IMG/VR virus record: IMGVR_UViG_3300037483_000592
Source: a virus
Reading direction: 5' to 3' (one strand)
Length of the DNA stretch: 48,041 nucleotides
This document shows positions 1 to 37,763 of the stretch, in pieces. The stretch's first letter is position 1. Each line of letters starts with the position of its first letter. The translations under genes were made by a program, and so were the position numbers. The notes beneath the pieces were generated by a model. That model was not told the origin of the DNA. It ran no database searches and saw only the letters and a list, made by a program, of their open reading frames with translations.

Positions 1-127
1 CTCGCCGGCCAGGTCGGCGTCCCCGGGCTCCCCGTACTTCCCCTCGATGTCCGCGCGGAAGGCCTCCGCGCTCTCGAAGCCCTTGGCCAGCTCCACATAT
101 TGCTGGTAGATCTCCGCGTCAACGGCG
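1..127. repeat. Terminal direct repeat copy 1 (exact overlap with window end; circular-assembly signature)
   Basis: Nt 1-127 are identical base for base to nt 47915-48041. The identity stops exactly at both window edges. Confidence 0.97.
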
Positions 128-3100
128 GTGCCGTAGAGGAACTCGCCCTGCCAGTCCTCGGGGTGAAATAGGATAGATCCCTCAAGTATTCTTTCAATTC
201 GTTCGAAAGCTTGTTCGAAGGCAGCGTCAATGGCGCTTCGGTGGCTTTCATATTCTTCTAAATCTTCGGTGATTCCCAGCACCTCAGACCTTACCGATCT
301 ATTTGGCGCTTCATGGATCTGTAGTGTTTCTCTGATCACTTGCCTTATGTTCTTCTTGCCCTCCATGAGGGCGAGTGCATTCTGTACGCTTACTCCTTCC
401 TCAATTAATGCCTGCTTGATTTCTTCATCCACATGAAACAGTGCTTTGTCGTAGGCCTTGCCGGCGTCCAGGTCCATCTCGGTTCTTCGGAAACGCATAT
501 CGGCAAACACGCTCGCCGGGACCTCCTGGGTCGCCGAGATGCGGTAGTCCTCGCTCATCGCGTGCTTCAGGGCCTTCACGTGCGAAACGAACAGCGTATG
601 AGAGAATGGGCCGTACTTGTCGAAGAAAGAAATCTGCCAGCGAGCCCCGGGGCGGGTGGCCGGAAAGAGGATATGGAACTTCGACCGGTCCGGGCTCTCG
701 AACAGGATCGCCGACCTACGGCTGCGCTCGTCTTTCAGCACCGCCAGGATCTTCCGGTTTTCTTTCATCTGGAAATCCCGGAACCGCCTCTCGATCTCAA
801 TCCCCGAACCTGGTTGCTCCTCGGCGATCGGGATGATGGCTTCCAGGGCCGCGATCGTACGATCGTGCTCCTCCAGGTCCTCCTGGGGGATCTCCTTGTG
901 GAACAGCTGCGTGACGGCTTGCGCGTCTACCTGTGGGGCCATTTTCGCGTAGAAGCGGCGCACATCCTGCATGGTGGGCTGCATCAGATTTTCCCAGCCG
1001 ATCGTACGGGCCTCACCTTCAGCGCTGCTCAGCTCCATCACCATCAGCTCTTTGCCGGCGATCAGGTATTCGATCACCTTCATCTGTTCGTCTGTCGGAA
1101 TCATGGTGCTCTGGATCGCGAGCTCGCCCATGATGCCTACATCCATTCGGAGGGCCCCGGCTTGCCAAGCAGCTTCATAGGCCGGCGGTTGTTTATCCGC
1201 CCATTCTGCTCCCAGTTCCTTGCTCTTCTTGAGCTGAGGGAAAACGAGCTCAATCCCGATATGGCCGATGCGGTCGTGGTATTTCCAATACCCCTCCCCT
1301 TGGTGCTTCTCCCAAGAGAAGTCCAGCATCCGGCCATCCGATAGAATCCAGGAGGCGTGCTTCTGGTTGTCGGTCGTGCCGAATACCTCCACGGCCGCGG
1401 CGTTGAACTTCTTCTGTAGCTCGGGATCCCGGTGGAACAGAGAGAGGTTGTCGGCGTCGTCCTTCAGGCGCTCCAGGGTGACAGCGGTCTGCTTGTCGGC
1501 CATCGCCCCGCTGACGTGCTTCCATCCCTCCTTGGTTTTCTCCCAGTCGGCGATCCGGATCTCCTGCTTCTCGGCGAAGTCGAAGATCGGCTGCACGTCC
1601 GGAGCCTTGGGCCGCAGCAGCTTGTCGTCCCACGGGACCAGGTCGAAGCCGGGGGGCTCGCCTTCCTCCGGATGCAGGAGAGCCTGCGCGGCCACCGGCA
1701 GGCCGGCCAGCTGTCGGGCCTCCCTCATCTTCTCGGGGTCTTGCGTCCAGCTCTCCCAGGTCTGCAGCTCCTCCCCCAGCGCATCGACCCGGTTCTGGAT
1801 AGCCGCAACGTCGCCGGCCTTGAAGCCGTACTTCTCGACGATCTTGGCCTGCGCGCCCCGGGACAGCCGGACGGCCGAGGAAAGCGCCTGGCGCTCCTGC
1901 AGGAGCTCCGCCTTCTTCGCGCTCACGGCCTTGGCGATCGCTTCCCCCTCGCGGATCAGGGAGTCGTCAAAGCCGAACATATCCCCCTGGGCGCCGCCGG
2001 CGGTGGTGACGGTCTGCCGTGCTAGGGCCAGGAAGTTGCCCAGCTCGTCGGCCGATAGCTTCTTGGCCTTGGTGATCCCCAGGCTCTGCAGCCGCTCATC
2101 CCCCAGCGAGGCCGCGGCTATGGCTGCGGCTTTGGCCTCGGTGATCTGATCGTTTCGGTAGAGAGAATAGAGACCATCGGAGGCATATCGGCCAATCGCG
2201 AAGCCGCTTCTTCCCTTGTGGCGATCAAGAAGTCCTCGGCGGGATGCTTCTTGCTCGGTGACTTGTCTCGCCCTGAAGTAGTTGGCATAGTCCCTCACGC
2301 TCCCTTGTCCGTCGCGGATGTTGGCCTCGGCGTCGAAGCTCATGGCCATCGCGGCGGTGAATCCGTCCGCCTCCCGCACGATCTGCGAGAGGATCGTCGG
2401 CAACTTCAGCCGTTGCGCCAGATCCAGCCGGTGGCGCCCGGTAATAACCTCCAGCCGTCCGTCCTGCCGCTCCCAGAGCACGATCGGCGGGATCCCGACC
2501 TTGACGTATTCCTCACCCTTCAGGGCCTCGATGATGCCGCGGCGGTCGGCCAGCTCCTTGAAGTTGGGGACCTCCGCGCTCAGAGTGATCCGGGAGAGCT
2601 CGACCTCCACCGGAGGTACGGCCGAGGGGCTGATGATGGTGGCGGCGCCCTCGGTCGACGGGGGCACGCCCTCTTCCACCTGGCTCACTTCCACCGCCGG
2701 GGCCGCCGGCGCCGGGACCTCGGCGGTGGCCTGGGCAAGTCCGCTGTCCGGCTTTTTCATCAGGCTGTCGTAGGCGGCCTGGAACTCCTGTGAAAGCAGC
2801 TCCGGCTCCTTGCCCAGCCTCTCCCGGATGAAGCTCAAGACGGCCCTCAGGGCCGCGGCGATCTGCTGGAACACGGACTGCAGCTCTGGGGTGGGCGCCT
2901 TTCCGGTGGCCAGGTAGTCCTCGAAGCGATCGGCCAGGTCCTCGATGTCGTCCACCGTCCAGGTCTGCCGGAGCTTGCCCAGCGCCGTTTCGAACTTCTT
3001 CACCTGGTCAGGGGAAAGCGCCAGCCGCTCGACCGCATGGAAAAACTCATGGACTCCATGGTGGAAATCGGCCTTCCCCAGCGCCGTGAAAAGGGCTTTC

Positions 3101-5244
3101 ACCTGGCCCTTGAACTGATCCACGGTCAGGGGAGCGATGAACTCCCCCCCGACCCGGAAGCGCGTACCGGCGATCCCCGTTCTCTCCTTCAACTCTGCGG
3201 CCGCCTCCGGTGTCACCAGGGCGACTTCGGGGCTGATGAACTGCCGCAGCCAGTCTTGCGTGCTCTGGCCAGAGACTTGCGCGAAGGTGTCGGACAGTTT
3301 GCCGAACAACTCCGCCTGCTCCGGGGTGGTGGCGTTGAAAAGCTGCCCCATGCGCTCCACGAACAGCCCGCGGGTGAGGTCCTGCTGGGCGGTGGCCTGG
3401 GCCTCCGGCCTGGCGACCTCGAAGCGCTGTAGGCCCCTCTCAGGCCCCAGCGGATTGGTAGCGACCAGGTCCTCTTTCAAGGCGACGTCCAGCTCGTCGG
3501 TCGGGTTCCACTCGATCTCCTGCCCCGGGTAGCGGGCCGCCAGGTCCAGCAGCAGCTCCCGGCGCAGATCCTGCTCCGTCTCGTTGACCACGTCCTCGAC
3601 GTAGATCCGCTCCCCGATGGTCTCGAAGGAAATGAAGCCGTAGCGCTTCCCGGTGGTGGGATCCCCGGCCTTCAGGAGCGCGACGACCCCCTGCTTGCCC
3701 CGCGTGAGGGTCTCGAGCTCCGTGTGCACCCGACCTTCCGGGCCCCGGACCGGGGCCGCTGCCTGCGCACCCTGCGCACCTGGCGCGGCCTGTGCGGGAG
3801 CTGCCGCGGCGGCCTGCTCCTTGCCGGGATGCTGTTGGTCCCAGACCTTGCCCAGGTAGGTGCGCCAGGCCGCATCGCTGACCCCCGTGCCCTGCAGCAC
3901 GTGGTCCCCGCGCATCACCGAGCCGATGAAGCCCAGGCGGCTGGGCATCTTCTTGGCCAGGTCGCGGATGCTGGACAGCTGGCGCACGTCGGCCCGCAGG
4001 CCGGCCGGAGCTCCGGAGACGCCGAAGATCAGGCCCGCGGAGACGCCACCGTAGAAGGCCTGACCGATCCGGCGGGCGGCTTCCTTGGTGGTCATGGGCG
4101 CGATCGTGGTCAGCACGTCCTGATTCTTCGCCAGCTCCCGGGCGGCCAGATCCGTGAAAATCGACGTGAGCTCCTGCAGGGGTTCCTCGATGCCTTCTCC
4201 GAGGGCGGCGCCCACCGCCTGGCCTGCCAGCCGCGTGGCCACCGCCCCGACCACCCCCGTGGCCATCATCTTGTTGGCGATCAGCGTCCCCGCGCTCTTC
4301 AGCGCCGGCGTGATCCCGGGCAGCTTCACGCCCAGGAGGATCTGCCCAACCGACTCGATGGCGCCCTCGACGATTCCCTCGATGTCGGACAGCGGGGCGG
4401 CGATGTTGTGCGGGACCTGGGCCTTGATCATCCGCCAGTAGGCCAGGCCGCGCATCACCTGGATGATGTCCTGGGTGGATCCCACCGCGAAGCCGACTGA
4501 AGCCATGGCCAGGGTGATTGCCGGCACGCTCATGCCCTCGGTGACTCCGGCCGCGGCCAGTCCCATCGGCGTAGCCGCGAGGGTCAGGCCGGCCACCGCG
4601 CCGGCGCCTGCGCCCATGATCCCGCCGCGGAGGAAGGACTGCGCCATGAGCGGCGTACTCTCCGTGGCCCAGAGCAGCGCGTTCTTGATCCAGGGCCTCG
4701 GGATCTCCGTCAGGGGCACGATCGCGGCTTCCAGCGCCTCCAGGCCCTTGATCATCGCCGGATCCTGCCCGCCGCTCTCCCGCAGCTGGAGGGCCAGCTT
4801 GCCGATGTCGTAATTCTTCATCCCGTTGTCCCAAGCGTCTCGGAGCGCCTGCGCGAACACGGGGGCCGGCGCGATCTTCCCCAGCCAGGCCTGTGACAGC
4901 TCTTCCAGGTTGGTGTAGGTCTTGGCGGGATCCAGGTCGAAGGTCTTGGCGATGTACTGGGTGGCGTTGATCCGGGTCATTTCCGCCACCGGATCATCCG
5001 CGGCGGCCAACAGGCGCATGAGGTTGATGCTCGGGTCCTCCGGTGCCGGCTCCTGCGGGATGGCCCCCTTCGAGCGCGCGTACATGGGGCTGGTTTCCAG
5101 GCCCAGCTGCTCGCGGACCGGATCCACGGCCTGGGGCACCGGGGGAATGACGGCTACCGGCTTCTTGTCCTTCGGAAACAGGGGCGGCACGGTCGCCTCA
5201 GTCTCCAGGCCCAGCTCGGTGCGGTAGCGGTTCAGATCGGACAC
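1..5244 (-). CDS. N-terminal 1748 codons of a giant (~2777 aa) internal virion/ejection 'polyvalent' protein; the ORF leaves the window at nt 1 and continues at nt 47914
   Basis: I read every plus-strand triplet 1-3, 4-6 ... up to 5244 and none is TTA/CTA/TCA. The next upstream in-frame stop is TCA at 5359-5361. The only start candidate is GTG (cac 5242-5244), which overlaps the TAG of the upstream gene. The frame is continuous with ORF 44825..48010 through the 127-nt overlap. The ORF track has no entry in this frame, as expected for an edge-truncated ORF. Confidence 0.85.
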   Translation of the reverse strand, partial: MSDLNRYRTELGLETEATVPPLFPKDKKPVAVIPPVPQAVDPVREQLGLETSPMYARSKGAIPQEPAPEDPSINLMRLLAAADDPVAEMTRINATQYIAKTFDLDPAKTYTNLEELSQAWLGKIAPAPVFAQALRDAWDNGMKNYDIGKLALQLRESGGQDPAMIKGLEALEAAIVPLTEIPRPWIKNALLWATESTPLMAQSFLRGGIMGAGAGAVAGLTLAATPMGLAAAGVTEGMSVPAITLAMASVGFAVGSTQDIIQVMRGLAYWRMIKAQVPHNIAAPLSDIEGIVEGAIESVGQILLGVKLPGITPALKSAGTLIANKMMATGVVGAVATRLAGQAVGAALGEGIEEPLQELTSIFTDLAARELAKNQDVLTTIAPMTTKEAARRIGQAFYGGVSAGLIFGVSGAPAGLRADVRQLSSIRDLAKKMPSRLGFIGSVMRGDHVLQGTGVSDAAWRTYLGKVWDQQHPGKEQAAAAAPAQAAPGAQGAQAAAPVRGPEGRVHTELETLTRGKQGVVALLKAGDPTTGKRYGFISFETIGERIYVEDVVNETEQDLRRELLLDLAARYPGQEIEWNPTDELDVALKEDLVATNPLGPERGLQRFEVARPEAQATAQQDLTRGLFVERMGQLFNATTPEQAELFGKLSDTFAQVSGQSTQDWLRQFISPEVALVTPEAAAELKERTGIAGTRFRVGGEFIAPLTVDQFKGQVKALFTALGKADFHHGVHEFFHAVERLALSPDQVKKFETALGKLRQTWTVDDIEDLADRFEDYLATGKAPTPELQSVFQQIAAALRAVLSFIRERLGKEPELLSQEFQAAYDSLMKKPDSGLAQATAEVPAPAAPAVEVSQVEEGVPPSTEGAATIISPSAVPPVEVELSRITLSAEVPNFKELADRRGIIEALKGEEYVKVGIPPIVLWERQDGRLEVITGRHRLDLAQRLKLPTILSQIVREADGFTAAMAMSFDAEANIRDGQGSVRDYANYFRARQVTEQEASRRGLLDRHKGRSGFAIGRYASDGLYSLYRNDQITEAKAAAIAAASLGDERLQSLGITKAKKLSADELGNFLALARQTVTTAGGAQGDMFGFDDSLIREGEAIAKAVSAKKAELLQERQALSSAVRLSRGAQAKIVEKYGFKAGDVAAIQNRVDALGEELQTWESWTQDPEKMREARQLAGLPVAAQALLHPEEGEPPGFDLVPWDDKLLRPKAPDVQPIFDFAEKQEIRIADWEKTKEGWKHVSGAMADKQTAVTLERLKDDADNLSLFHRDPELQKKFNAAAVEVFGTTDNQKHASWILSDGRMLDFSWEKHQGEGYWKYHDRIGHIGIELVFPQLKKSKELGAEWADKQPPAYEAAWQAGALRMDVGIMGELAIQSTMIPTDEQMKVIEYLIAGKELMVMELSSAEGEARTIGWENLMQPTMQDVRRFYAKMAPQVDAQAVTQLFHKEIPQEDLEEHDRTIAALEAIIPIAEEQPGSGIEIERRFRDFQMKENRKILAVLKDERSRRSAILFESPDRSKFHILFPATRPGARWQISFFDKYGPFSHTLFVSHVKALKHAMSEDYRISATQEVPASVFADMRFRRTEMDLDAGKAYDKALFHVDEEIKQALIEEGVSVQNALALMEGKKNIRQVIRETLQIHEAPNRSVRSEVLGITEDLEEYESHRSAIDAAFEQAFERIERILEGSILFHPEDWQGEFLYGTAVDAEIYQQYVELAKGFESAEAFRADIEGKYGEPGDADLAGE
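2310..2610 (-). other. ParB/Srx-like N-terminal domain inside the giant ORF (aa ~879-978)
   Basis: The translation reads GIPPIVLWERQDGRLEVITGRHRLDLAQRLKLPTILSQIVRE. This is the ParB-type beta strand, G-x-H/R-R and helix pattern. Confidence 0.6.
3037..3051 (-). other. HEXXH (HEFFH) zincin-type metallopeptidase motif inside the giant ORF (aa 732-736)
   Basis: The translation reads LGKADFHHGVHEFFHAVERLAL. Confidence 0.45.
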
Positions 5245-7067
5245 TACCGGCCCCCCGTTTTCTTGCGGGCCTCTTCCTGGAGCTCCAGGCCTTCCATACG
5301 GCCCTTGAGCAGGAGCTGCTCCTCGACGCGCTTGGCTGCCGCGGCCTCGGCCTCCTGCTCACGCCGGGTGATGTCCTCGGCCGCCGTGGCCTGGCCGGCC
5401 TCGCCGACCTGCTGCCAGGTGTACTTCCCGCCTCGGGTCCTGGCCAGGCGGAACAGGGTGAGCTGCTTGCCCTCAACCTTGTAGGCGTAGGGGATCCCGC
5501 TGGCGCTGATCAGGATCGCGGTCCCCGGCTTCCCGCCATAGGCCCCGGTGGTGTCCGTGAACACGGAGGCGATGCCCTGCTCCGGGAACTCCGTCCGGGC
5601 CCGAGCCACCAGGTAGGCGTTGTACCGGGCCAGGTAGTCCTGGCGGGCGCCAACCAGGCCGGTGTACTTCCCCTCCTCGATGTCGCGGGAAAGCAGCTCG
5701 AACTCATCCAGCACCTTCTTGTCCCCGAAGAGGACCTCCCAGCTGCGGCGGCCCCAGCGGTCGATGTTGCGCATGGCCACCGGCTTCACCAGGTTGTTGG
5801 CGGCAGCCTCGATGGTTTTCTGATCGGCGTCCGGGTTGTCCTGCATCCAGGTCCGGAAGTCGTTGACTACCCGCATCTGATCCGGGCCGTCCAGACCCGA
5901 GGCCTTGGTTTCGATGTACTTGATGGCCGCGCTGAACGCTGGATCTTCCTTCACCCCCAGGTATTCGAAAGCCGCCTTCACGAAGGAGCCGCGGACCAGG
6001 GGCCGTCCCGTGCCTTCCTTGTCGCGGCCGTAGTAGGCATCTTCCACCATCTGCCGGAGGGACCCCAGCGGGATTTTTCCCTTACCGAGCGCCAGCCGGG
6101 CCCAGAAGGAGTCCTCGTTGTTCTTGTACCAATCATCCAGCGCCCCGGAAGGCAGGGTGCCCATGTTCAGGAGCTGGGCGCGCTTTGCCGCGAACCGCTG
6201 CTCCCAGGTGTACTTCTGATCCCCGTTGTAGAAGTCGGAGGCTGCCAGCTGCCCCACGGCCTGGTCGATCTTCTCGACGCTGTCCGCCTCGATGTGCAGG
6301 TCGGCGAAGGTCCGGTCCAGCTGCTCATCCGCCAGCTTCCCGGCCTGGCCCTGCTCCCGGGCCAGCTCGTCAGCAAGCTTCAACCGGGTGTCGGCGTCCA
6401 GGGAGTAGCTCTCTTCGGCGAAGGCCGCTTCCGCTTCCTCGCTGGCCAGCCAGGCTACCCCCTTCTCGCCCATCTGCCTGGCCGCCTCCATGGTCTTGTC
6501 CCGGACGACTTCCTGGATCGCCGCGTCCTTGAGCTTGGCCAGGTCGGAGGCCTCGAACTCCATGGCCGTGCCCGCGGCAGCCAGCTCCGATTGCACTCGA
6601 CCCACGTCCAGGTCCTGGATGGCCTGGTTGATGGACTGCACGCGGAGCGTTCGAGCGTGGTCGATTGCGCGGGTGTCGGAGAGCTTCTGCACGTTATCCG
6701 CCCAGCCTTGGCGCAGGTCCCCCAGCTGCCGTTCGATCTCCCGCTTGGCCCCCGGGAGCTTGAGGCCCTTGCCCAGCTCATCGCGCAGGCCAGAATAGAA
6801 GGTGTCCAGCTTCTCCCCGTAGTCGGCATACTCGGGATCCCGCTGCAGCTCGCTCCAGAAGGTCCGCCACTGATCGCGGGCCTTGTTGGCGGCATCGTTG
6901 GCCTGGTTGCGGTTGGCCAGGTCGAACATCTTTCCGGCGAAGCCGGTTGCAACCTGCTCGACTCCGGCGGCCAGCTGGCCCCGGGCCCGAGCCTCCGCGC
7001 CAGCCAGGCCTCGGCGGCTGGGTTTGCGCGGGACGCCGATTTGCGGCTGGTAGATCGGGATCGCCAT
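5244..7067 (-). CDS. Virion internal/core protein candidate (positional equivalent of T7 gp15); function unknown
   Basis: This is a 607-aa ORF with protein-like composition. It lies between the small TM protein and the giant gene. Its TAG overlaps the GTG start of the giant ORF. Confidence 0.7.
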   Translation of the reverse strand: MAIPIYQPQIGVPRKPSRRGLAGAEARARGQLAAGVEQVATGFAGKMFDLANRNQANDAANKARDQWRTFWSELQRDPEYADYGEKLDTFYSGLRDELGKGLKLPGAKREIERQLGDLRQGWADNVQKLSDTRAIDHARTLRVQSINQAIQDLDVGRVQSELAAAGTAMEFEASDLAKLKDAAIQEVVRDKTMEAARQMGEKGVAWLASEEAEAAFAEESYSLDADTRLKLADELAREQGQAGKLADEQLDRTFADLHIEADSVEKIDQAVGQLAASDFYNGDQKYTWEQRFAAKRAQLLNMGTLPSGALDDWYKNNEDSFWARLALGKGKIPLGSLRQMVEDAYYGRDKEGTGRPLVRGSFVKAAFEYLGVKEDPAFSAAIKYIETKASGLDGPDQMRVVNDFRTWMQDNPDADQKTIEAAANNLVKPVAMRNIDRWGRRSWEVLFGDKKVLDEFELLSRDIEEGKYTGLVGARQDYLARYNAYLVARARTEFPEQGIASVFTDTTGAYGGKPGTAILISASGIPYAYKVEGKQLTLFRLARTRGGKYTWQQVGEAGQATAAEDITRREQEAEAAAAKRVEEQLLLKGRMEGLELQEEARKKTGGR

Positions 7068-7074
7068 AATCCTC

Positions 7075-7503
7075 CTACGCCAGCATGCTGCCGGCGGACG
7101 CCAGGCTGCCCAGGAGGCTGCCCCACACCTGGTAGGGGCGGGTTTTCTTGAGCACGTCGGCCTCCGCTTCCATGGCCTCGGCGTCCCATTCGCCTTGCTG
7201 TCGAAGCCGGCTCACGTCCTGGCTCATGCGCCGGGAGGTTTCGCCGATCAGGGCCAGGGGGGAGCCGCTGGTGAGCTTCACCCCGGAGCGGCCGATCATG
7301 GCCTGCTGGGTGCCGGCGAACTGCTTCTGCTGCAGCTGGAGGTCCTCGACCTTGAACTCGGTTGCCTGGCGGGTCTGTTCCGCCTCTTCCCGGGCTGCGG
7401 CCTCTTCGGCCTTGCTCTCGTCGGAAGCAGCTTTGGCCTTCAGCGCGCCACCGATCAGGGCTGCGCCCGCGGCAATTATAGCGATCCACGTAAACGGATC
7501 CAT
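7075..7503 (-). CDS. Small membrane-anchored coiled-coil virion protein (positional equivalent of T7 gp14)
   Basis: The protein is 142 aa. It has an N-terminal TM helix (FTWIAIIAAGAALIGGAL) followed by a charged helical region. Confidence 0.7.
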   Translation of the reverse strand: MDPFTWIAIIAAGAALIGGALKAKAASDESKAEEAAAREEAEQTRQATEFKVEDLQLQQKQFAGTQQAMIGRSGVKLTSGSPLALIGETSRRMSQDVSRLRQQGEWDAEAMEAEADVLKKTRPYQVWGSLLGSLASAGSMLA

Positions 7504-7512
7504 AGGGCGCTC

Positions 7513-10500
7513 CTATTCTCCCACGTTCAACTTGCCCACGATGCCCAGGATGCTCATAGGCAGCGGCTGGTCTTGCACGATCATGATGCTGCCTTCCTCG
7601 CTGAACTTGCCCCCGATGGTGACCCGCTGTGCCCCGGTTTTCAGGTCCACTGTATCATAGCGGATGGCCTTGAGGCTGGCCTCGTCCGATCCGATCTTGC
7701 CCCCGCGGCTCTTGGACAGCAGCAGGAGGGCCTCCGGGATCCTCACCGGGGAGAAGTGCCCCAGGCGCTGGGTCCACATCTTGCCCGTGTAGGGCAGACC
7801 GACGTGGATCTTGGCCGCGTACTGGTCGATGGTGATGGCGCCGGCGGAAACCACTTCCTGGCCCAGCTCCACCCCGTCAGCGTAGACCGCCACCGTCTTG
7901 GCCTCCAGGTGATCCAGGCCAGAGAGGGCCTTCACAACCTTCTCCAGGAGTCCGCCAGACACGTATGCGCCCATCTCCGCCCCATCTGCGAAGGTAACTC
8001 CATCGGTGAGGTACAACTCGAAGGTGTTGGTCGTCTTGCTCTTCACCATGTAGCTGTTGCCGTTGAGCTGGGTCATTCCAACAATCCCGGTGATCCGCAC
8101 GAACTCGTCGTTGACGAAGGGATGGCCGTTGGCGGTGACCATGACCGGGGAACGCGCTTTCAGATCATCGAAATAGATGTATTCGCCAGCTTCTGCCGTT
8201 GACTGGAGTAACAGCAGGGCCGTGGCTGCGGTGGCGGAAGCAGGAATCGTCATTTCTGCCTGGATCGATTCCCAGGAATCCGACAGGGAAGCCGCCTGGC
8301 TGATGTAGGTCCAGGCTCCGGAGTCATAGTAGCCAATCCGCAGTACGATTTCGCTGGGGCTCGGGCCTCCGGCAGGCGGCACGTAGAACCGGACCGTCAC
8401 CTTGTACTTCCTGCCGGCAACAAAACCGTGAAGATCCGTGGTCAAGGCGTTGTCCACGAAGTACTGCCCGCCCGTGCTTCCGGATGCGGAGGTCTTGGTG
8501 AGCTTCATCGAATAGCTGCCCTGATAGGCTCGATCGGCGCTTCGGGCGCAGGTGCAGCTATAATGCGATTCCGCATCGTCCTGCACGTGGGGAATGTCCA
8601 CCGACTCGCAATCGCCGTGATCCATCAGCGGATAGCTGGCCGCCCCGTTGACCAGGTCCTGCGTGGCGCTGTAGTCGTAGATCTTGCCGCAGTCCACGAA
8701 GTGGTAGTCCTTCTCGTCGGAGGGCCGGCGCTGGGGCTGCATGTACTCGATGTACTGCTTGGTGACGCCGTTGATCACCCGCTGCACGCACAGGTAGATG
8801 GTGTCCTCGCCGTTGGAGGCGTCGCCGGAGACGATGGCCAGGCTCTTGATGATGCCGTCCCGCGGATGCCGGCCCCAGGCCACGATGCTGTTGTTGCGGT
8901 CCAGGGTCAGGGAGGCGAGCTCGCCGGTCCCCAGGCGGGTCCACAGCATGGAGCTGGGGGAGCGCTGCCAGGCGAGCTCCTGGAAGCCCAGCTCGCCGAT
9001 ATGGTCCGCCAGCAGGGTTAGATCCGGGGAGACGTAGCCGCCCCGCTCCTGGCTGTACAGGAACTCCAGCAGCCGCTGGCCGCCCTTCTGCACGTAGAGC
9101 AGCGAGGCATTGGCGAGCACCGCGCAGATCTCCGCGCTGCCGTTGCCAGACACGCGGTCGGCAAAGACGTTGGATCCAGTGATGGGAGCATCCCCGCCGG
9201 TCAGAAGCCACTCGCCCAGTGTGGTGCCCACCACGACATTATGGGCCTTGGTGCGCATCCAGATGATCTCTTCCAGTACGTCAGAGGCGAGGCTGTATTC
9301 AAACCCGAAACTGGCATCCAAAGAATCGAGAGTGAAGTCCTGCGGCCATCCCGTGCGTGAGCCCCAAACTGTCCCATCTCTTGCGACTAGTAGTCTCTGA
9401 TCGTGGAACGTGAGAGCCTGCGGAAATCGCGATGCCCAAGGCACGGGTTCCCATCCGTTCACAACAAAAGCACAATCCTTGGAAGCGCCGGCAGGCAAAT
9501 CTGCCGGATTCGATAGCTTGGTGAATGTATCGCCCGCGTGTTTGTAGATCGTTACATAAGGCGTGGTGCCGGAAACAACGGCAAGATAGTTATCACCAGA
9601 AGAGAAGGCACATGATTGTCCAGCGGCTGGACCCGCGGTTGGATCTGCCAGTTTAATGAATGAATCGCCGCTACGCTTATAGATTAAAACATATGGCGTG
9701 GCATTATGAGCAACTGCGAGATACAGATTGTCCGACGAGAAACAGCATTGGTGCCCGCCATTAGGCAGACTTGCAGGATCGGATAGTTTGTTGAAGGCAT
9801 CCCCATCTCGCTTGTAAATGTAAATATACGGGGTAGTCAACGAAGTAATAGCCAAATAGTTTTCGTTGGGAGAAAAACAACCACCGGTCCCGCCGCCCGG
9901 AGGAATGGGTGAGGGATTCGGTAGCTTGGTGAAAATATCCCCATTCCGCTTGTAGATGGTTAGGAAGGGCGTGGTTCCATTCCCAGCCGCCAGATACGTG
10001 CCGCTATTAGAAAAGAAACAGCGTAAAGGAATACCCGGAGGAAGATCGGCAGGGTCAGACAGTTTTACAAAGGTATCGCCTGTACGCTTATAAATCAGAA
10101 TAAACGGAGTTGCGTCCGTGCAAACGGCAAGATATCTGGAATCCAGCGAAAAAGCACATCCCCTCACCAGAGCAGGAGGAAGATCTGTCGGATTTGCAAT
10201 TTTCTCATATTTCTCGCCACTTCTCTTGTAGATCGACAGGAAAGGCGTTGTGGCGTGTCCGACGGCGAGATAAACACCATCCTCTGAAAATGCACAAGCC
10301 TCGGCATTGCCAGTCGGCAAAGTAGTGGCATTCGGTCTTTTTGAGAAAGTATCTGAGCCATATGAATAGATAGTGGCAAATGGAGTCGTTGTATGCGCTA
10401 CCGCCAATGAAACATCTATGCCAGCATTCGATAGATTCCAAGCATAGTCGTTGAAAACCGCAAGGCGATGAAGCTGATAATCTGCATGAGCCAGGTAGGC

Positions 10501-10878
10501 TTTATTCTCCTGCTGCGCGATCTGTAGACCGAACAGATCGGCCGCCAGCCAGGGCGTGATGATCTCTAAGGGATTGCCCCCTTCAAGCAGCCGCGCCTTG
10601 TCCTTGTAGAACCGGCAGGCGAGCTCCGTGAGTTCGAGCACGTACTTCTCGCTCGAGGATTTCTCGAAGGGGATCAGCCGCACCGGGCTGGTGTTGGTCT
10701 TGGCCTCGCAAAGGAACACGGTGCCCGGGTCGAAGTCCAGGCCGCCCGCCGGGTGGAGGAGGAAGTTTTCCGATATGCGCAGGGTCTTGTCGTAGAGCGG
10801 GCTGTCGACCCGCGCCATGAAGCGGTCGGATACCTCGCCCCCCAGGAAACTGGTGTTGAACTTGCGTCCTTCGGCCAT
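7513..10878 (-). CDS. Mosaic tail tubular B/nozzle-like protein with inserted beta-propeller, CBM-like and FCCH-like domains (likely receptor binding)
   Basis: The protein is 1121 aa and sits directly downstream of the tubular-A-like gene. The core is interrupted by seven blade repeats (aa ~155-475), a jelly-roll-like module (aa ~750-908) and a small barrel (aa ~910-978). Confidence 0.75.
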   Translation of the reverse strand: MAEGRKFNTSFLGGEVSDRFMARVDSPLYDKTLRISENFLLHPAGGLDFDPGTVFLCEAKTNTSPVRLIPFEKSSSEKYVLELTELACRFYKDKARLLEGGNPLEIITPWLAADLFGLQIAQQENKAYLAHADYQLHRLAVFNDYAWNLSNAGIDVSLAVAHTTTPFATIYSYGSDTFSKRPNATTLPTGNAEACAFSEDGVYLAVGHATTPFLSIYKRSGEKYEKIANPTDLPPALVRGCAFSLDSRYLAVCTDATPFILIYKRTGDTFVKLSDPADLPPGIPLRCFFSNSGTYLAAGNGTTPFLTIYKRNGDIFTKLPNPSPIPPGGGTGGCFSPNENYLAITSLTTPYIYIYKRDGDAFNKLSDPASLPNGGHQCCFSSDNLYLAVAHNATPYVLIYKRSGDSFIKLADPTAGPAAGQSCAFSSGDNYLAVVSGTTPYVTIYKHAGDTFTKLSNPADLPAGASKDCAFVVNGWEPVPWASRFPQALTFHDQRLLVARDGTVWGSRTGWPQDFTLDSLDASFGFEYSLASDVLEEIIWMRTKAHNVVVGTTLGEWLLTGGDAPITGSNVFADRVSGNGSAEICAVLANASLLYVQKGGQRLLEFLYSQERGGYVSPDLTLLADHIGELGFQELAWQRSPSSMLWTRLGTGELASLTLDRNNSIVAWGRHPRDGIIKSLAIVSGDASNGEDTIYLCVQRVINGVTKQYIEYMQPQRRPSDEKDYHFVDCGKIYDYSATQDLVNGAASYPLMDHGDCESVDIPHVQDDAESHYSCTCARSADRAYQGSYSMKLTKTSASGSTGGQYFVDNALTTDLHGFVAGRKYKVTVRFYVPPAGGPSPSEIVLRIGYYDSGAWTYISQAASLSDSWESIQAEMTIPASATAATALLLLQSTAEAGEYIYFDDLKARSPVMVTANGHPFVNDEFVRITGIVGMTQLNGNSYMVKSKTTNTFELYLTDGVTFADGAEMGAYVSGGLLEKVVKALSGLDHLEAKTVAVYADGVELGQEVVSAGAITIDQYAAKIHVGLPYTGKMWTQRLGHFSPVRIPEALLLLSKSRGGKIGSDEASLKAIRYDTVDLKTGAQRVTIGGKFSEEGSIMIVQDQPLPMSILGIVGKLNVGE
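7945..8150 (-). other. E1 FCCH-like small beta-barrel domain (copy in nozzle protein)
   Basis: The sequence VTANGHPFVNDEFVRITGIVGMTQLNGNSYMVK...TFEL resembles the HGF..GD.V.F.EV.GM.ELNG motif of the ubiquitin-E1 FCCH domain. Confidence 0.55.
8155..8631 (-). other. Carbohydrate-binding-module-like (CBM4/9/22-type jelly roll) domain
   Basis: The sequence reads ...AYQGSYSMKLTKTSASGSTGGQYFVDN...GRKYKVTVRFYVP...EIVLRIGYYD...SWESIQAEMTIPA...GEYIYFDDLKA, a typical CBM-like pattern. Confidence 0.5.
9454..10416 (-). repeat. Seven tandem ~45-aa (~135-nt) blade repeats; predicted 7-bladed beta-propeller insert
   Basis: The unit YLAV..TTPF..IYKR.GD.F.KL..P..LP......CAFS occurs seven times. This DNA is visibly more AT-rich than its flanks. 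Confidence 0.75.
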
Positions 10879-10887
10879 GGCCTGCTC

Positions 10888-11694
10888 CTACATTTCCGTG
10901 ATCAGTTTCGAGCCCTTCTCCGGCTCCTGCCGGTAGCGCGCGTCCTGGCTGCGAGCCAGGGTCAGCAGCGCGCCGAACTCCTGGTCCAGCTCCTGCAGCT
11001 TGCGGGGGCTGGCCTTCAGGTCCGGGCAGGACACGGCCGCCAGGCGGGTGGCCACGGTATCAGCCAACAGCGGGGCGAAGAAGCGGAAATCCGCGAGGTA
11101 GCAGATATAGAGGATCTGCACCGTCTCGTCCGCGTAGTCGGTCAGCAGGATGTTGTGCTCTTCCACCCAGCTCCCGATGTCGATCCCGGTCTGGATCACC
11201 TTGATGCAGTCGTCCGGGAGCTTGAAGGCGTAGGAGTAGCCCCAGGCGGGGATCCGCCAGATCTTGCCGCCGGACGTCCAGACGCCAAAGCCGGTCCCGT
11301 CGACCTCCTCCGTGCCATCCTCGGTCCACAGCGCGAAGGTGTTGGCTGCCGCGGCCTTCACCATGTAGGAGTTGTCGTTGAGCTCGGTCATGCCGCCCAC
11401 GTCGGTGAAGGATACGATGTCGCCGTTCTCGAAGGCGTGCCCGGTAGCAGTGATCACCACGGGCTTGGCCTTCGTGGCGGCCTCCACCAGGTCGGTGTCT
11501 CGCTGCAGGACCGCTCTCTTGCGCGCGCACTTCCAGTCGGCGAGCTCCAGGACCTCATGCAGGACCTGCTCCCAGACCGCGTTGAAGGCGTTGGCTTCCT
11601 CGCAGTCCTCCGTGCCGGTGGACAGGCGTAGCGTGATCCCCAGCTTGGTCAGCGCCAGGTTGTAGATCCGGACCTTGGTTTCGTTCAGGTTCAT
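10888..11694 (-). CDS. Tail tubular protein A/adaptor-like (T7 gp11-type) with inserted FCCH-like barrel
   Basis: The protein is 268 aa. Its N-terminus (VRIYNLALTKLG...) and its position immediately upstream of the nozzle gene both fit this call. Confidence 0.6.
   Translation of the reverse strand: MNLNETKVRIYNLALTKLGITLRLSTGTEDCEEANAFNAVWEQVLHEVLELADWKCARKRAVLQRDTDLVEAATKAKPVVITATGHAFENGDIVSFTDVGGMTELNDNSYMVKAAAANTFALWTEDGTEEVDGTGFGVWTSGGKIWRIPAWGYSYAFKLPDDCIKVIQTGIDIGSWVEEHNILLTDYADETVQILYICYLADFRFFAPLLADTVATRLAAVSCPDLKASPRKLQELDQEFGALLTLARSQDARYRQEPEKGSKLITEM
11266..11466 (-). other. E1 FCCH-like small beta-barrel domain (copy in tubular A-like protein)
   Basis: ITATGHAFENGDIVSFTDVGGMTELNDNSYMVKAAAANTFAL is a paralogous motif to the one at 7945-8150. 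Confidence 0.55.
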
Positions 11695-13240: not shown

Positions 13241-13249
13241 AGCCTTGCT

Positions 13250-13268
13250 CCTCAAACCAAGTTTGAGG
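13250..13268 (-). promoter_or_regulatory. Hairpin overlapping the capsid-gene Shine-Dalgarno
   Basis: The inverted repeat CCTCAAAC-nnn-GTTTGAGG is 8 bp. On the minus strand its 3' arm contains the first 4 nt of the SD GAGGAG (13248-13253). Confidence 0.4.
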
Positions 13269-14659: not shown

Positions 14660-14673
14660 CCGAGCGCTCGGAT
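14658..14673. repeat. 16-bp perfect palindrome ATCCGAGCGCTCGGAT (copy 1)
   Basis: It spans the gap between the stop of the 416-aa gene and the ATG of the GT-MT gene. An identical 16-mer lies at 34456-34471. Confidence 0.9.
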
Positions 14674-19047: not shown

Positions 19048-19328
19048 TGCGTTTTCTCCCTCAGCGGCGCGGCGCCTGGCGCTTCCACCAGCCTCCGCGT
19101 CAGCTCGAACAGATTGGATTCTCGGACGAGACCCGTCCGCTTCAACACCCGTCTCGCAAGGTTCTGCCTCGTCACCAGCTGGGGATCCGGATCGATCTCA
19201 TCCCAGAGGTGGCACTCATCATGCACCAGGTGGGCCAGGACCAGCGGCCCGATCGCCGTCTGCGTGAAAAGGACCTTGTACAGCTCATCGATCTCTTCTT
19301 CGGGGAGCTGCCGGCCCAGGTACTCCAT
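19044..19328 (-). CDS. Hypothetical protein
   Basis: This is a 94-aa ORF that starts at the portal stop. Confidence 0.6.
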   Translation of the reverse strand: MEYLGRQLPEEEIDELYKVLFTQTAIGPLVLAHLVHDECHLWDEIDPDPQLVTRQNLARRVLKRTGLVRESNLFELTRRLVEAPGAAPLREKTQ

Positions 19329-30435: not shown

Positions 30436-30788
30436 GGCTTCACCTCATCGAATGCCTTCATGAACCGCTTGTGCTGTTCATTCTCGCAGCGGCTCGCCCA
30501 TTCCAGGTTCGAGGCGGCGTTGTTGAACGTGTTGCAATCGAAGTGGTTGACCTCATGCTGGCCGAGCTCTGGCGGGGGAAGGAAAGCCGCCGCGACCAGG
30601 CGATGGACGCGGGCGGCCTTTCGCTTGTTCCACCGCCACAGATCGACCTTGAGGTAGGTCCCATTGCGCTTGGGCACAATGTTCTGCGCTACAAGCCTCA
30701 CGATCCCGATCTTGATCACCCTGCGCACCCGGCCAAGGTTGCTGACCTCGTAGGGGTAATGGTCGATGGGGCGCCATTCCTCGGTCAA
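30432..30788 (-). CDS. HNH homing endonuclease with NUMOD4 motif
   Basis: WRPIDHYPYEVSNLGRVRR is the NUMOD4 motif. VHRLVAAAF...VNHFDCNTFNNAASNLEWASRCENEQH is the HNH_3 motif. Confidence 0.85.
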   Translation of the reverse strand: MTEEWRPIDHYPYEVSNLGRVRRVIKIGIVRLVAQNIVPKRNGTYLKVDLWRWNKRKAARVHRLVAAAFLPPPELGQHEVNHFDCNTFNNAASNLEWASRCENEQHKRFMKAFDEVKP

Positions 30789-32479
30789 TTGAACAGCTCC
30801 TCGCTTGCTTTCAGCTCGGCGCGGCCTTCGACCAGCTCCAGCGTCCGCAGCCGGCCCAGCGCGTTCTGGAAACCACCGCCGGAGGGCTCATACCCCGTGG
30901 CGGCCCCGAGGTCCTCCTTCGTCGCCGCGGTTGGGTAGATCTCCGCCAGGCGGGAGAGGATCAACCGCTCCGCCTTCCCCAGCTGCCGCAGCCAATGTTC
31001 GAGCAGCTCGCGGCCGGAGGGCAGCGGATCGTAGGCGCCCAGGGCCGCCAGGCCGGCCTCGGTGATGCTCAGGAGGTCCCGGCCCTCGATGCAGCCCTTG
31101 CTGCGGAGGGCCCCCAGGTAATTCTGGAAGGCCCCGCCCGTGACGGCATACGCCGTGAGGATCGCTATCTGGCGTTTGGTGCGGCCCTGCGGGTACTGCG
31201 CCAGGGCGGTCAGGATCTTGCGCTCGCCGCCGGAAACGCGGCCATCGACTACTACCGGTCGAGAAACCGACCGCCGGGGGACAATCTGCGGCGTGACCCG
31301 CACCGCGGCCGCGGGCTTCTGCTCGGCGCCCAGGACCTGGTCCAGGGCCTGCAGCGCCAGGTTGACCTCCTTGCTGATGTCAACGAGCCGCCCCCGCAGC
31401 AGCAGCAGGCCAGGCCCCATAATCTTCTTTTCCTCTGCAGCTCCGGCCGCGCGGCCTTCTTCTCGAGCTCGCTGCAGGGCAGCCGGATCTACCGGGCCGC
31501 CGCGCTTCCGCAGCTCCGCGTCGAGGCAGGCGATCCGCTTCCGGAGCTCCCGGGGATCCTCGACCTTGGCGCGCTCGATGGTGGCGGCCAAGTCCTTTCG
31601 CAGCTTTTCCAGGTCGACCGCGGCGCTGGCCGTGGGGGCCAGGGGGCGCTCGCCGACCTTCGGGGTGGCGCTGGAGTCGAACGTCTTGCGCTCCCGGATC
31701 TGCACGCGCTTGAACAGATCTAGCCATCCGGGGCTCCAGACCCAGGCCTCGCCGATCCCCAGGCTGGCCAGGCTGTCCATGAACTCCTGCCGCTGGTCGT
31801 GCGCGTCGTGGGCCTCGACCCAGGCCTCCAGGGCCTTGCGATCCTGGGGGCTGATGGTGCGCAGGCAAATGAGGACCTCGATTTGCGTGAGGACGTCCTT
31901 GTTGACCACGGCCGCCCGCTGGCTGATCAGGGTAACGCCGATCCCGGAGGCCCGACCGCGGCGCACCAGGCGGTCGACCGAGCCGAACATGCGCTCCTGG
32001 CCGGCCTGGATCCTCTGCGGGACGAACTCGTCGGCCTCATCGATCACCACCTGCAGCGGTTGCCGGTATCGGTCCTGGCCCTTGCGGTGGTAGAGCCGCT
32101 CGCAGAAGTCCGTCACCAGGCGGCGCTGATCAGCCATCGAGAAATGCCGCATAGAGAGGATGATCGGCGCCCGGTTCTCCACGACGAAGTCCGCGACGAT
32201 CGCTCCGGAGCTCGCTTCCAGGGGCAGATCCCCATGCTCACCGCCCAGGACCGTGATCGGGAAGCCTGGCGTCTTGCCGTCGATCGAGGAGCGCAGGCCA
32301 AACCACACATCCAGGGGATCCAGGATCACTACCTGCTGGCCGGCGGCGAGCAGCTCCTCGGTGAGGACAACGGCCGTATGCGTCTTGCCGGCTCCGCGCT
32401 TGGCCAGGATCGCCGCGGTCTGCGTCACCATTTCGACAGGCAACGTCAGGCCGCGAGCAAGGTGCAATCCATCTTTCAT
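30785..32479 (-). CDS. HerA/FtsK-like P-loop ATPase with two C-terminal winged-helix repeats
   Basis: The protein is 564 aa from ATG 32479, with an ATGA overlap with the ParB-like gene. It has Walker A (KRGAGKTHT), Walker B (VVIDEADEF) and GIGVTLISQR. There are two wHTH-like repeats near the C-terminus. Confidence 0.75.
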   Translation of the reverse strand: MKDGLHLARGLTLPVEMVTQTAAILAKRGAGKTHTAVVLTEELLAAGQQVVILDPLDVWFGLRSSIDGKTPGFPITVLGGEHGDLPLEASSGAIVADFVVENRAPIILSMRHFSMADQRRLVTDFCERLYHRKGQDRYRQPLQVVIDEADEFVPQRIQAGQERMFGSVDRLVRRGRASGIGVTLISQRAAVVNKDVLTQIEVLICLRTISPQDRKALEAWVEAHDAHDQRQEFMDSLASLGIGEAWVWSPGWLDLFKRVQIRERKTFDSSATPKVGERPLAPTASAAVDLEKLRKDLAATIERAKVEDPRELRKRIACLDAELRKRGGPVDPAALQRAREEGRAAGAAEEKKIMGPGLLLLRGRLVDISKEVNLALQALDQVLGAEQKPAAAVRVTPQIVPRRSVSRPVVVDGRVSGGERKILTALAQYPQGRTKRQIAILTAYAVTGGAFQNYLGALRSKGCIEGRDLLSITEAGLAALGAYDPLPSGRELLEHWLRQLGKAERLILSRLAEIYPTAATKEDLGAATGYEPSGGGFQNALGRLRTLELVEGRAELKASEELFN

Positions 32480-33165
32480 CCGGTGCTCTCTTTCGGCATG
32501 GCTCGCAGGTAGCGCAGCACGGCCGCCTTGGCCTCCTTGCTCGAGCAAACGACGATAATATTGGGCCCTCGCGTGATGAAGATCTCGAAGCCTTCGCAGG
32601 GCACCCGCTCTCCGCGGTGGTAAGTGCCTTTCCTCTTCTTGACCTTACTCTCCTGGAGCTTCGCCTTGAGATCCTGCAGCTCCACGCCAGTGAGGGCCTC
32701 GAGGTACTGCTTCTTGAATCCCTGCGTGGCCAGCCATTGATAGGTACTCGCCATGCTGCGGTGGTAGCTCAGATAGCCCGGCCGCTTGCCGAGCATCGTA
32801 TCGAGCGCGCGGTCGGTCAGAGCAGGATTGCGCTTCTTGATTTCCTCCGCGGCCGCGAGGATCTCATCGGTGGAGAGCTGCTTGCGCACCATGTTCTCCT
32901 GCAGCTTGATCAGCGGAATGTCGCGCTCGGCGATGTCGTCTAGGATCCGTGCCGCAATGCAATAGTCCCCATTCATCTGAGCGACCCGGAAGCGCCGATG
33001 CCCCCAGACCAGCTCGTAGCGCTCCCCGCGGGGGTAGATCCCGATCGGCTGCAGCTGGGTGAAGCGCTGCGTACTACCGATAAGCTCGCCGAGCTCCTCA
33101 TCGATCTCGAAGCGGACATTCTTGACGATAAAGATCTTGTCGAGGGGCACGTCGCGGACTTTCAT
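32476..33165 (-). CDS. ParB-like N-terminal domain protein
   Basis: The protein is 229 aa and contains LQPIGIYPRGERYELVWGHRRFRVAQMNG, the ParB/Srx GxRR motif. Confidence 0.75.
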   Translation of the reverse strand: MKVRDVPLDKIFIVKNVRFEIDEELGELIGSTQRFTQLQPIGIYPRGERYELVWGHRRFRVAQMNGDYCIAARILDDIAERDIPLIKLQENMVRKQLSTDEILAAAEEIKKRNPALTDRALDTMLGKRPGYLSYHRSMASTYQWLATQGFKKQYLEALTGVELQDLKAKLQESKVKKRKGTYHRGERVPCEGFEIFITRGPNIIVVCSSKEAKAAVLRYLRAMPKESTG

Positions 33166-34440: not shown

Positions 34441-34812
34441 CTATCTCCTTTCTCTATCCGAGCGCTCGGATAGCGCCCGGTCTTTGGGCTTCGGCATCCG
34501 CTTGTTCCTTGCCAAGTCCTCCAGCGTTTCCCGGATCTTCTTCATGCCGGCCGCGCGTTCCTCGTGGCACATGGGCGGCGCCCCCAACAGGCGCACCGCA
34601 GGCGGTTGACTGCCCAGCTCCCCCAGGAGCCTGCGGAGCTTGGCCGCGGGCGGCGGCCAGTGATCCTCGTGTTTCCGCAACAGCTCGACGTAGAGCCTCT
34701 CCAACTCCCGCTCATCGACTCGCTGCAGGAACGTCCCGACAGCCTCGCGCATCCCGGGCAGGTACTGGCCGAAGGTGCGCTCCATTTGGTGCATGAACTC
34801 TCGCGCCTTCAC
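34441..34812 (-). CDS. Hypothetical protein coupled to the replication initiator
   Basis: The protein is 123 aa. It has an ATGA overlap with the initiator gene. Confidence 0.6.
   Translation of the reverse strand: MKAREFMHQMERTFGQYLPGMREAVGTFLQRVDERELERLYVELLRKHEDHWPPPAAKLRRLLGELGSQPPAVRLLGAPPMCHEERAAGMKKIRETLEDLARNKRMPKPKDRALSERSDRERR
34455..34472. repeat. Palindrome TATCCGAGCGCTCGGATA (contains copy 2 of the 16-mer at 14658)
   Basis: This is an 18-bp perfect palindrome. It lies in the short gap between genes 34441..34812 and 34122..34436. Confidence 0.9.
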
Positions 34813-37542: not shown

Positions 37543-37763
37543 GACACGCCCCTCCGGCCGAAGCAGAAGCGCAGCCACATGATGCTGCCGGTAACATGGC
37601 TCCGCCAGGGAAGCAGCCAGCAGCGGAAGCGTTTAGAGAAATGGTGCAGCGCAACGGGGCCGATGCAGAGCATCCTGTCCCCGTCGTTGAAAAGGTGAAT
37701 GGCGACGACTCCCGCCCTTCCGCCGAACTTGATCCAGCGATTCGTGTAGCCGACGCCTTTCAT
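37539..37763 (-). CDS. Hypothetical protein
   Basis: The protein is 74 aa from ATG 37763, with an ATGA overlap. Confidence 0.5.
   Translation of the reverse strand: MKGVGYTNRWIKFGGRAGVVAIHLFNDGDRMLCIGPVALHHFSKRFRCWLLPWRSHVTGSIMWLRFCFGRRGVS

Follow-up and report, generated by a model that had tools for sequence, protein, structure and literature searches.

A widespread ParB-like module in a giant, putatively polyvalent protein of an uncultured podovirus-like phage

A giant ORF on a circular phage contig

The DNA analysed here (hereafter the window, that is, all 48,041 nucleotides of the IMG/VR virus record IMGVR_UViG_3300037483_000592) carries on its minus strand a giant open reading frame (ORF) coding for 2,777 amino acids (aa), and this study concerns a ~290-aa module within the encoded protein that is predicted to adopt the fold shared by ParB and sulfiredoxin (Srx). 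The first and last 127 bp of the window are identical (1-127 = 47915-48041), an assembly overlap which identifies the window as a full circular (or circularly permuted) contig whose unit measures 47,914 bp, and the giant ORF therefore crosses the junction. That is, the minus-strand frame is open from 5358 down to window position 1, resumes at 47914 and reaches a stop at 44825; after joining the ends, the ORF runs from a GTG start at 5244. Both halves are found in a single uninterrupted ORF in four IMG/VR contigs (orthologues of 2,643-3,081 aa). The only match of the giant C-terminus is to phrog_9880, of unknown function (E 1e-29), and no similarity to the DNA of the giant gene was found among 50,697 phage records. 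The GTG shares one base with the TAG stop of an upstream 607-aa ORF, an arrangement indicative of translational coupling, and the order of genes is tail tubular B, a 142-aa ORF, the 607-aa ORF and the giant ORF. The features of the locus are as follows.

1..5244, minus strand: giant ORF, N-terminal part, aa 1-1748 (open frame, start context, colinear orthologues L045/L046/L047/L050)
44825..47914, minus strand: giant ORF, C-terminal part, aa 1749-2777 and stop (in-frame join, phrog_9880, orthologues)
47915..48041, no strand: repeat of window 1-127 (assembly overlap of the circular contig)
5244..11694, minus strand: upstream structural block with tail tubular A, tail tubular B, the 142-aa ORF and the 607-aa ORF (PHROG matches)

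A predicted ParB fold within the giant protein

A preliminary description of this DNA had pointed to a ParB-like pattern between 2310 and 2610, corresponding to aa ~860-1000 of the giant protein. The pattern is indeed present, in the peptide GIPPIVLWERQDGRLEVITGRHRLDLAQRLKLPTIL encoded at window positions 2389-2496 on the minus strand (aa 917-952), the plus-strand reading of 2310-2610 being full of stops. When the single sequence was searched against the PDB with phmmer, Helicobacter pylori ParB alone was returned (E 0.71). In an alignment of giant aa 860-1130 with 18 homologues (A1, 19 sequences), five of the 19 sequences were touched by the Pfam ParB_N model, with a best E of 3e-4. An AlphaFold2 model of aa 860-1130 built on A1 reached a predicted local distance difference test score (pLDDT) of 86.6 and a predicted template modelling score (pTM) of 0.77. 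Searched with Foldseek against the PDB, this model matched Noc best (7nfu, E 8.5e-7, probability 1.0), followed by the ParB proteins of Myxococcus, Caulobacter and Bacillus, by KorB and Spo0J, and then by pNOB8 ParB, PadC and sulfiredoxin; the top ~36 matches, and every significant one, belong to the ParB/Srx superfamily. The matches to ParB (7bnr, 6t1f and 6sdk) and KorB (8qa8 and 8qa9) extend over 210-226 columns. Alignments to C-terminally truncated Noc and ParB constructs cover 210-221 columns with a target-normalised template modelling (TM) score of 0.53-0.57, so that both the N-domain and the DNA-binding domain that follows it are matched. Among the predicted viral structures of BFVD, the best matches were phage proteins labelled 'large polyvalent protein associated domain', followed by phage ParB/Spo0J proteins.

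Comparison of profiles gave the same picture. With hhalign, the module profile aligned to that of a free-standing ParB family, one member of which is encoded elsewhere in the window (see below), over 94-98 columns (probability 91%, E 9e-7), pairing VPxFK with NxRxE, GRHR with GHRR, and DAExNIRD with QENMVR; likewise, HMMER alignments placed GRHR on the GERR of Noc and H. pylori ParB. Together, the family-level comparisons and the model indicate that the region is a ParB/Srx-fold domain. The resemblance first noticed in the sequence was found again by structure prediction, fold search and profile-profile comparison. The earlier assignment to a ParB N-terminal domain holds for the fold, but not for the extent, as the unit is a cassette of ~290 aa that also takes in a helical domain, a linker and a long helix.

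Module anatomy and conserved residues

The limits of the module (aa 880-1172, window 1729-2607) were drawn from an alignment of the matched stretch in 145 representatives that are pairwise <50% identical. As judged from the structural model, it is made up of a ParB N-domain, a helical domain at the position of the ParB helix-turn-helix (HTH), a conserved DLFG linker and a long helix.

1729..2607, minus strand: ParB-like module, aa 880-1172 (hidden Markov model envelope, conservation in 145 sequences, AlphaFold2 and Foldseek)
2290..2607, minus strand: predicted ParB/Srx N-terminal (nucleotide-binding) fold, aa 880-985, four strands plus helices (DSSP of the model, Noc/ParB/Spo0J/Srx alignment, hhalign)
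2557..2571, minus strand: VPNFK, Box I-like, aa 892-896 (F and K invariant; aligned with NxR(F/T)E in the free-standing family)
2428..2442, minus strand: TGRHR, Box II or P-motif GxxR, aa 935-939 (G, R, H and R each in 145/145)
2302..2334, minus strand: DAEANIRDGQG, Box III-like, aa 971-981 (N975 and G981 invariant; aligned to QENMVRKQL)
2005..2289, minus strand: helical domain, aa 986-1080, with DYxxYF and RGLLxR, at the ParB HTH position (Foldseek; VTEQEASR corresponds to MTQEELSK of H. pylori ParB)
1963-1989, minus strand: QGDMFGFDD linker, aa 1086-1094, of which DMFGFDD, aa 1088-1094, is 1963..1983 (conserved, non-helical, lower confidence in the model)
1747..1965, minus strand: long helix ending in WxxW, aa 1094-1166 (model helix 235-270)

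Nine residues are invariant in all 145 representatives, namely F895, K896, G936, R937, H938, R939, N975, G981 and D985, and the motifs VPNFK, DAExNIRD, DYxxYF, RGLLxR, DLFGxDDSA and WxxW are nearly so, the two tryptophans of the last motif being conserved in 134 (W1163) and 136 (W1166) sequences. The linker has the family consensus [QT]-x-D-[LM]-F-G-x-D-D-S-A, in which D, F and G are kept in 139-140 of the 145 representatives, and its Q is present in all five orthologues. We take the QGDMF of this linker to resemble the bacterial beta-sliding-clamp binding motifs QL[SD]LF and QADMF. In the model, the long helix at aa 1094-1166 may serve as a dimerisation element.

Distribution and mobility of the module

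No model for this family exists in Pfam, NCBIfam or PHROGs. A search of 1.84 billion representative proteins with the A1 profile returned 2,774 clusters at E<=1e-3, 864 of them at E<=1e-30. Module-bearing proteins are mostly 1,000-5,000 aa long (the top 144 new representatives have a median length of 2,128 aa, and 127 of them reach at least 1,000 aa), and within the carrier the module usually begins after about the first quarter of the sequence. In GTDB genomes it was detected at 35 loci, mostly within ORFs of 1,000-3,600 aa, in Alpha- and Gammaproteobacteria, Verrucomicrobiota, Planctomycetota, Spirochaetota, Acidobacteriota and others, and in IMG/VR it is present in 114 contigs. Seven phage records were also matched, the cultured carriers among them being Vibrio phages 1.183.O, 1.211.A/B and D478 and Shewanella phage X14. 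In Vibrio phage 1.211.A the module lies in a 2,715-aa protein (NVP1211A_14) encoded directly after the head genes.

The proteins that carry the module differ widely in their remaining parts. Some have ART-PolyVal, LPD38, RadC or methyltransferase domains, which marks them as polyvalent phage proteins (PMC5512222); in the protein of Vibrio phage 1.211.A and in the 2,812-aa P0020 the module occurs together with LPD38. The module is the sole region common to the giant protein and P0020, and likewise to the giant protein and a 468-aa protein of the contig L001. The latter is a solo module (JGI Ga0642625_03529), encoded amid large unannotated ORFs on a 48.8-kb phage-like contig. Another solo module, of 363 aa in L002 (ENA k141_441577), adjoins AAA_25 and DHH genes, and virion genes are not evident there.

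Across the four orthologous giants, no block is better conserved than the module, with 0.70-0.78 identity per 50-aa block; in aa ~1200-1700 identity drops to 0.08-0.36 and the sequence is partly replaced. These comparisons show the module to be under strong purifying selection, and its range of carriers shows it to be a widespread mobile cassette of giant phage polyvalent proteins and speaks for an autonomous unit. The stretch at giant aa ~1200-1800 (window 1-1644 and 47740-47914) shows little conservation among the orthologues, some of it being replaced or deleted, and the N-terminal 1,200 aa and the C-terminal 1,090 aa are colinear. To judge from the sequences, this pattern of a variable centre within colinear ends looks like cargo swapping in a fixed frame.

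Other regions of the giant protein

Just upstream of the module lies a conserved block of ~130 aa with an invariant HExxH.

3037..3051, minus strand: HEFFH, aa 732-736, invariant HExxH (conserved ~130-aa block just upstream of the module)

Within giant aa 520-860 (window 2665-3687), HEFFH is followed by the conserved motif W..E..A..FE.YL.TG.AP. In other giants the same block is found at other positions (aa 1400-2000), so that it is itself a mobile module. It had no match in Pfam, NCBIfam or PDB profile searches, an AlphaFold2 model of the region (pLDDT 79) had no significant fold match, and a homologue search with the region returned no homologue. On account of the invariant HEFFH, a zincin peptidase (MPTase) beside the module is conceivable, though Pfam, NCBIfam, PDB and fold searches gave no match to one. 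Further upstream in the protein, a beta/alpha subdomain at aa ~520-600 (window ~3445-3687) has weak Foldseek matches to the GNAT acetyltransferases RibT, RimI and AcrVA5 (E ~0.2 over 70-80 columns, root-mean-square deviation ~2.5 A).

A second ParB-fold domain (GmrSD_N/DUF262) at giant aa ~2028-2104 was also considered and rejected: the Pfam E values are only 0.011-0.047, and the DGLRR of the giant, to be compared with the DGQQR-type motif of that family, is not kept in the four orthologues (DILRK, DALRK, KDLER and NALRE). Scanned as overlapping 400-aa pieces, the giant protein contained no other Pfam or NCBIfam domain. A simple Kyte-Doolittle scan picked out just two moderately hydrophobic, Gly/Ala-rich segments in the giant protein, aa 214-255 (4479-4604) and aa 2643-2663 (45167-45229), which could, on composition, be membrane-interacting stretches as in ejection proteins.

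Genome context

The remaining gene content points to a temperate podovirus-like (short-tailed) phage, uncultured, whose portal is ~27% identical to those of cultured podoviruses. The main landmarks are the following, all from PHROG/Pfam scans except the 607-aa ORF.

5244-7067, minus strand: 607-aa ORF immediately upstream of the giant ORF (open frame)
7513-10878, minus strand: tail tubular B
10888-11694, minus strand: tail tubular A
12194-13255, minus strand: major head protein
19328-21037, minus strand: T7-type portal
21037-22527, minus strand: large terminase
34809-35591, minus strand: replication initiator
37760-39003, minus strand: exonuclease-like genes
39000-40016, minus strand: Erf
41268-42452, plus strand: integrase

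Between the head and minor-tail genes, a 445-aa ORF (13355-14692, minus strand) matches phrog_1574 (unknown function) and carries a class-I methyltransferase domain (Methyltransf_24, 28.8 bits against a cutoff of 26.3).

The free-standing ParB and its HerA-like neighbour

The window encodes a second ParB-like protein, which the preliminary description had also listed and had set beside the giant as one of two divergent ParB-fold proteins.

32476..33165, minus strand: free-standing ParB, 229 aa, with N16/R18, GHRR at 55-58 and QENMVR at 89-94 (PF02195, homologues)
30785..32479, minus strand: HerA-like ATPase, directly downstream of the free-standing ParB (Pfam HerA_C/DUF87, NCBIfam HerA)
34454..34473, no strand: 20-bp perfect palindrome CTATCCGAGCGCTCGGATAG, 1.3 kb upstream of the free-standing ParB

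This protein, whose motif VWGHRRFRVAQ is encoded at 32977-33009 on the minus strand, scores 28.1 bits with Pfam ParB_N, above the cutoff of 26.3, and matches Spo0J in the PDB (1vz0, E 2e-8); its alignment to Noc covers residues 3-173, that is, the N-domain and the HTH. PF02195 is found in 49 of 49 full-length homologues. The family comprises proteins of ~230 aa in which N16/R18, GHRR and QENxxR are invariant. With TIGR00180 the protein reaches 43.9 bits against a cutoff of 58.45, and the Noc models are under their cutoffs as well. The ParB stop overlaps the start of the HerA-like gene in a relative, L125 (10001-12725; 87% identical), where the pair is kept; there, an HNH endonuclease follows the pair. 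An LG[KR]GL ParA-binding motif was found in neither ParB protein, nor was a ParA-type deviant Walker A in any frame of the window; since there is no ParA, the HerA-like ATPase is an unusual partner for a ParB. The gene is located between the replication initiator and the packaging genes, and its 'early' expression is a guess from this position. We propose, from sequence and gene order, that it encodes a separate canonical-type orphan ParB working with its HerA-like neighbour in a replication/recombination gene block. It fits the orphan phage ParB proteins of the cytidine triphosphatase (CTPase) fold described by others (PMC12704722) in having PF02195, an N-domain and HTH and no ParA and in residing on a mobile element, but differs in being paired with a HerA-like ATPase rather than solitary or fused.

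The palindrome may represent a parS-like or operator site, or else form a hairpin in RNA. Its 16-bp core, ATCCGAGCGCTCGGAT, occurs twice in the window, within 34454-34473 and at 14658-14673, both times at a gene junction. In L125 (8921-8940) the core is intact and the outer pair is changed symmetrically from CT..AG to CC..GG, identity being 77% over the 221-nt aligned stretch around it; in more distant relatives the palindrome was not found.

Both ParB-fold genes are therefore real, and the proteins are divergent, as had been noted: one is a canonical-type orphan ParB and the other the module. The pairing itself is less remarkable than that description implied, because the module is widespread and ParB domains in polyvalent proteins have already been published (PMC5512222). 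The IMG/VR scans lend no support to the two proteins travelling together: of the 114 module contigs, the 80 that were listed include none of the four in which a relative of the free-standing ParB occurs, and the contigs of the four orthologous giants are not among the IMG/VR contigs with a detectable relative of the free-standing ParB. A scan of GTDB genomes with the free-standing family gave no relative.

Relation to known ParB-fold and polyvalent proteins

The module shares with the ParB/Spo0J, Noc and KorB clamps (7nfu, 6t1f, 6sdk, 7bnr and 8qa8) the order of an N-domain followed by a helical DNA-binding domain, and the GxxR P-motif at the corresponding position; motifs resembling Box I and Box III also lie at aligned positions, the latter with its register one residue off. 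Unlike these proteins, it is embedded at aa ~880-1172 of a 2,777-aa protein, has GRHR instead of GERR, and adds the family-specific motifs DYxxYF, RGLLxR, DLFGxDD and WxxW.

Polyvalent proteins were defined by Iyer and colleagues in 2017, who found a 'DdrB-like ParB' hub domain only in phage-type members and predicted it to be an NTP-regulated deoxyribonuclease (DNase) or a nucleoside triphosphate (NTP) sensor delivered with the DNA (PMC5512222). That domain (P1 DdrB, PF18763) is likewise a ParB/Srx domain in large multidomain phage proteins encoded beside virion genes and predicted to be delivered with DNA, but the module differs from it in including a ParB-like DNA-binding domain. Membership of the module in the DdrB-like family was rejected: P1 DdrB, used as a control, matches PF18763 at E 2e-39, no such match was obtained for the giant or its 18 homologues, and the DdrB N-terminus aligned with the module profile in hhalign at a probability of 0.3%. 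ParB-fold domains in polyvalent proteins are thus an already published theme, within which the module is a distinct family. A 2025 survey of the ParB-CTPase fold extended ParB-fold switches to many fusion proteins; built on PF02195 and related models, it is silent on polyvalent and virion proteins (PMC12704722), so that the module of the giant protein probably lies outside it.

As to the carrier, the giant appears from its sequence to be a phage polyvalent protein in the sense of Iyer and colleagues (PMC5512222), being a very large (2,777 aa) mosaic protein encoded downstream of tail tubular A and B. In podoviruses, internal-virion or ejection genes occupy this genome position and are highly mosaic (PMC10386132). 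The giant ORF, coupled to an ORF downstream of the tail tubular genes, is positioned in the same way, in agreement with its earlier description as a virion protein. By analogy, it is plausible that the giant protein is packaged in the virion. Two giant LPD38 proteins offer a comparison: gp47 of phage phi24B, with 2,811 aa, was found in virions by proteomics (bioRxiv 10.64898/2026.04.10.717836), and in phage PTXU04 the giant LPD38 protein is required for infection (bioRxiv 10.1101/2023.09.18.558157); a ParB domain is mentioned in neither paper. The LPD38-type giants (phi24B gp47, PTXU04_00025 and NVP1211A_14) are, like the protein studied here, mosaic proteins of 2,200-2,800 aa encoded after head or tail genes, but the latter has no Pfam match to LPD38, LPD1/5 or MuF. 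As the giant lacks a Pfam LPD38 and phi24B is not among the seven phage records matched by the module, its likeness to gp47 is one of protein class, size and genomic position only.

Possible function of the module

The reading that we put forward, with a rough probability of 0.6, is that the giant is a mosaic polyvalent protein of the internal-virion or ejection type and that the cassette is a delivered, nucleotide-gated DNA-binding device. The giant protein would be packaged and would enter the cell with the phage DNA; the cassette would then bind a nucleoside triphosphate and, in the manner of ParB, Noc and KorB, the nucleotide would gate its binding to, or clamping on, DNA of the incoming phage or of the host at an early stage of infection. 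The packaging of the cassette, its NTP and DNA binding and the timing are what we infer. The Box II P-motif GxxR is present in the module, aligned to GERR and GHRR, and proteins of the ParB-CTPase fold generally bind CTP, ATP or GTP in a GxxR-dependent way, with a specificity that is not predictable from sequence (PMC12704722).

Several observations weigh against this reading. The giant protein scores under the Pfam ParB_N gathering score (14.5 bits against 26.3, E 0.036), TIGR00180 and other NCBIfam ParB models give no match to the module, and in a Pfam scan the giant has no recognisable hub domain (MPTase, LPD, ART or MuF). Within the module, the Box III register is one residue off the canonical ENxxR (in hhalign, Asn falls on Asn and its Glu and Arg neighbours lie one position out of line); together with the replacement of the Glu/Arg of GERR (GRHR), this means that catalysis may differ. 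The copy in the giant also departs from the family consensus, with LKLPTILSQ for GE.TIPAQ and ASL for AAP. Finally, a recognisable C-terminal ParB dimerisation domain was not found in the giant protein, which makes clamp formation speculative. A more specific version of the delivered device, in which a virion-delivered clamp dimerises by the long helix, loads on incoming phage or host DNA and shields, anchors or organises it before phage gene expression, and in which the [Q/T]xD[L/M]FG linker (QGDMF) may tether it to the host sliding clamp, is tentative, and we consider it improbable as a whole.

The main rival casts the module as a DNase or nickase of the ParB type, comparable to Osa, to the ParB-methylase Bce_0392 or to GmrS-type domains, instead of a nucleotide-gated switch for DNA binding; after delivery it would cleave the DNA of the host or of a competitor, or nick phage DNA so that replication can start. 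The fold and the invariant polar residues (R, H, R, D, E, N and D) would fit a metal- and phosphate-binding active site, and the GxHR of the module presumably resembles the [DT]GxHR signature of non-partition ParB/Srx members. However, the model is structurally closest to CTPases that clamp DNA (ParB, Noc and KorB), whose DNA-binding domain it also matches, rather than to nuclease-type members, so that its structural neighbours favour the clamp type. The literature can be read both ways, as ParB-fold nucleases have been reviewed and NTP-regulated DNase roles proposed for polyvalent proteins, but in the same work NTP sensing or degradation is deemed the likelier key function of polyvalent ParB domains (PMC5512222). 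We regard a nuclease as unlikely.

Less probable still is a module with no role after entry, serving as an assembly handle on the packaged genome or portal, or as an NTP-consuming enzyme unrelated to DNA. Its place in a late structural operon would suit this, and strong conservation next to a variable 'cargo' region also fits a structural or assembly constraint, but the occurrence of the module at varied positions, in varied architectures and as solo proteins of 340-470 aa (with a non-structural context in L002) rather suggests an autonomous effector. That a helical region unrelated to ParB matches the motif by chance, as the weak Pfam match (E 0.036) and the phmmer result (E 0.71) might have allowed, is effectively refuted, since structure-based, profile-profile and family-level evidence independently point to ParB and the significant PDB folds are all ParB/Srx.

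Biological meaning

ParB-fold nucleotide switches are known in chromosome and plasmid segregation, nucleoid occlusion and gene silencing. No other part of these giant, presumably ejected phage proteins is as well conserved as the module, which occurs in thousands of clusters from many bacterial phyla; the module does not attain the threshold of the Pfam ParB_N model on which the recent survey relied (PMC12704722). If the module is an injected, NTP-gated DNA-binding device, it would represent a new step in the earliest phase of infection, and a soluble domain of ~300 aa with an invariant GRHR would provide a handle on the opaque giant ejection proteins. If, moreover, the clamp reading is true, this would be the first ParB-CTPase-fold switch to act as an injected effector, in a family of at least 2,774 clusters.

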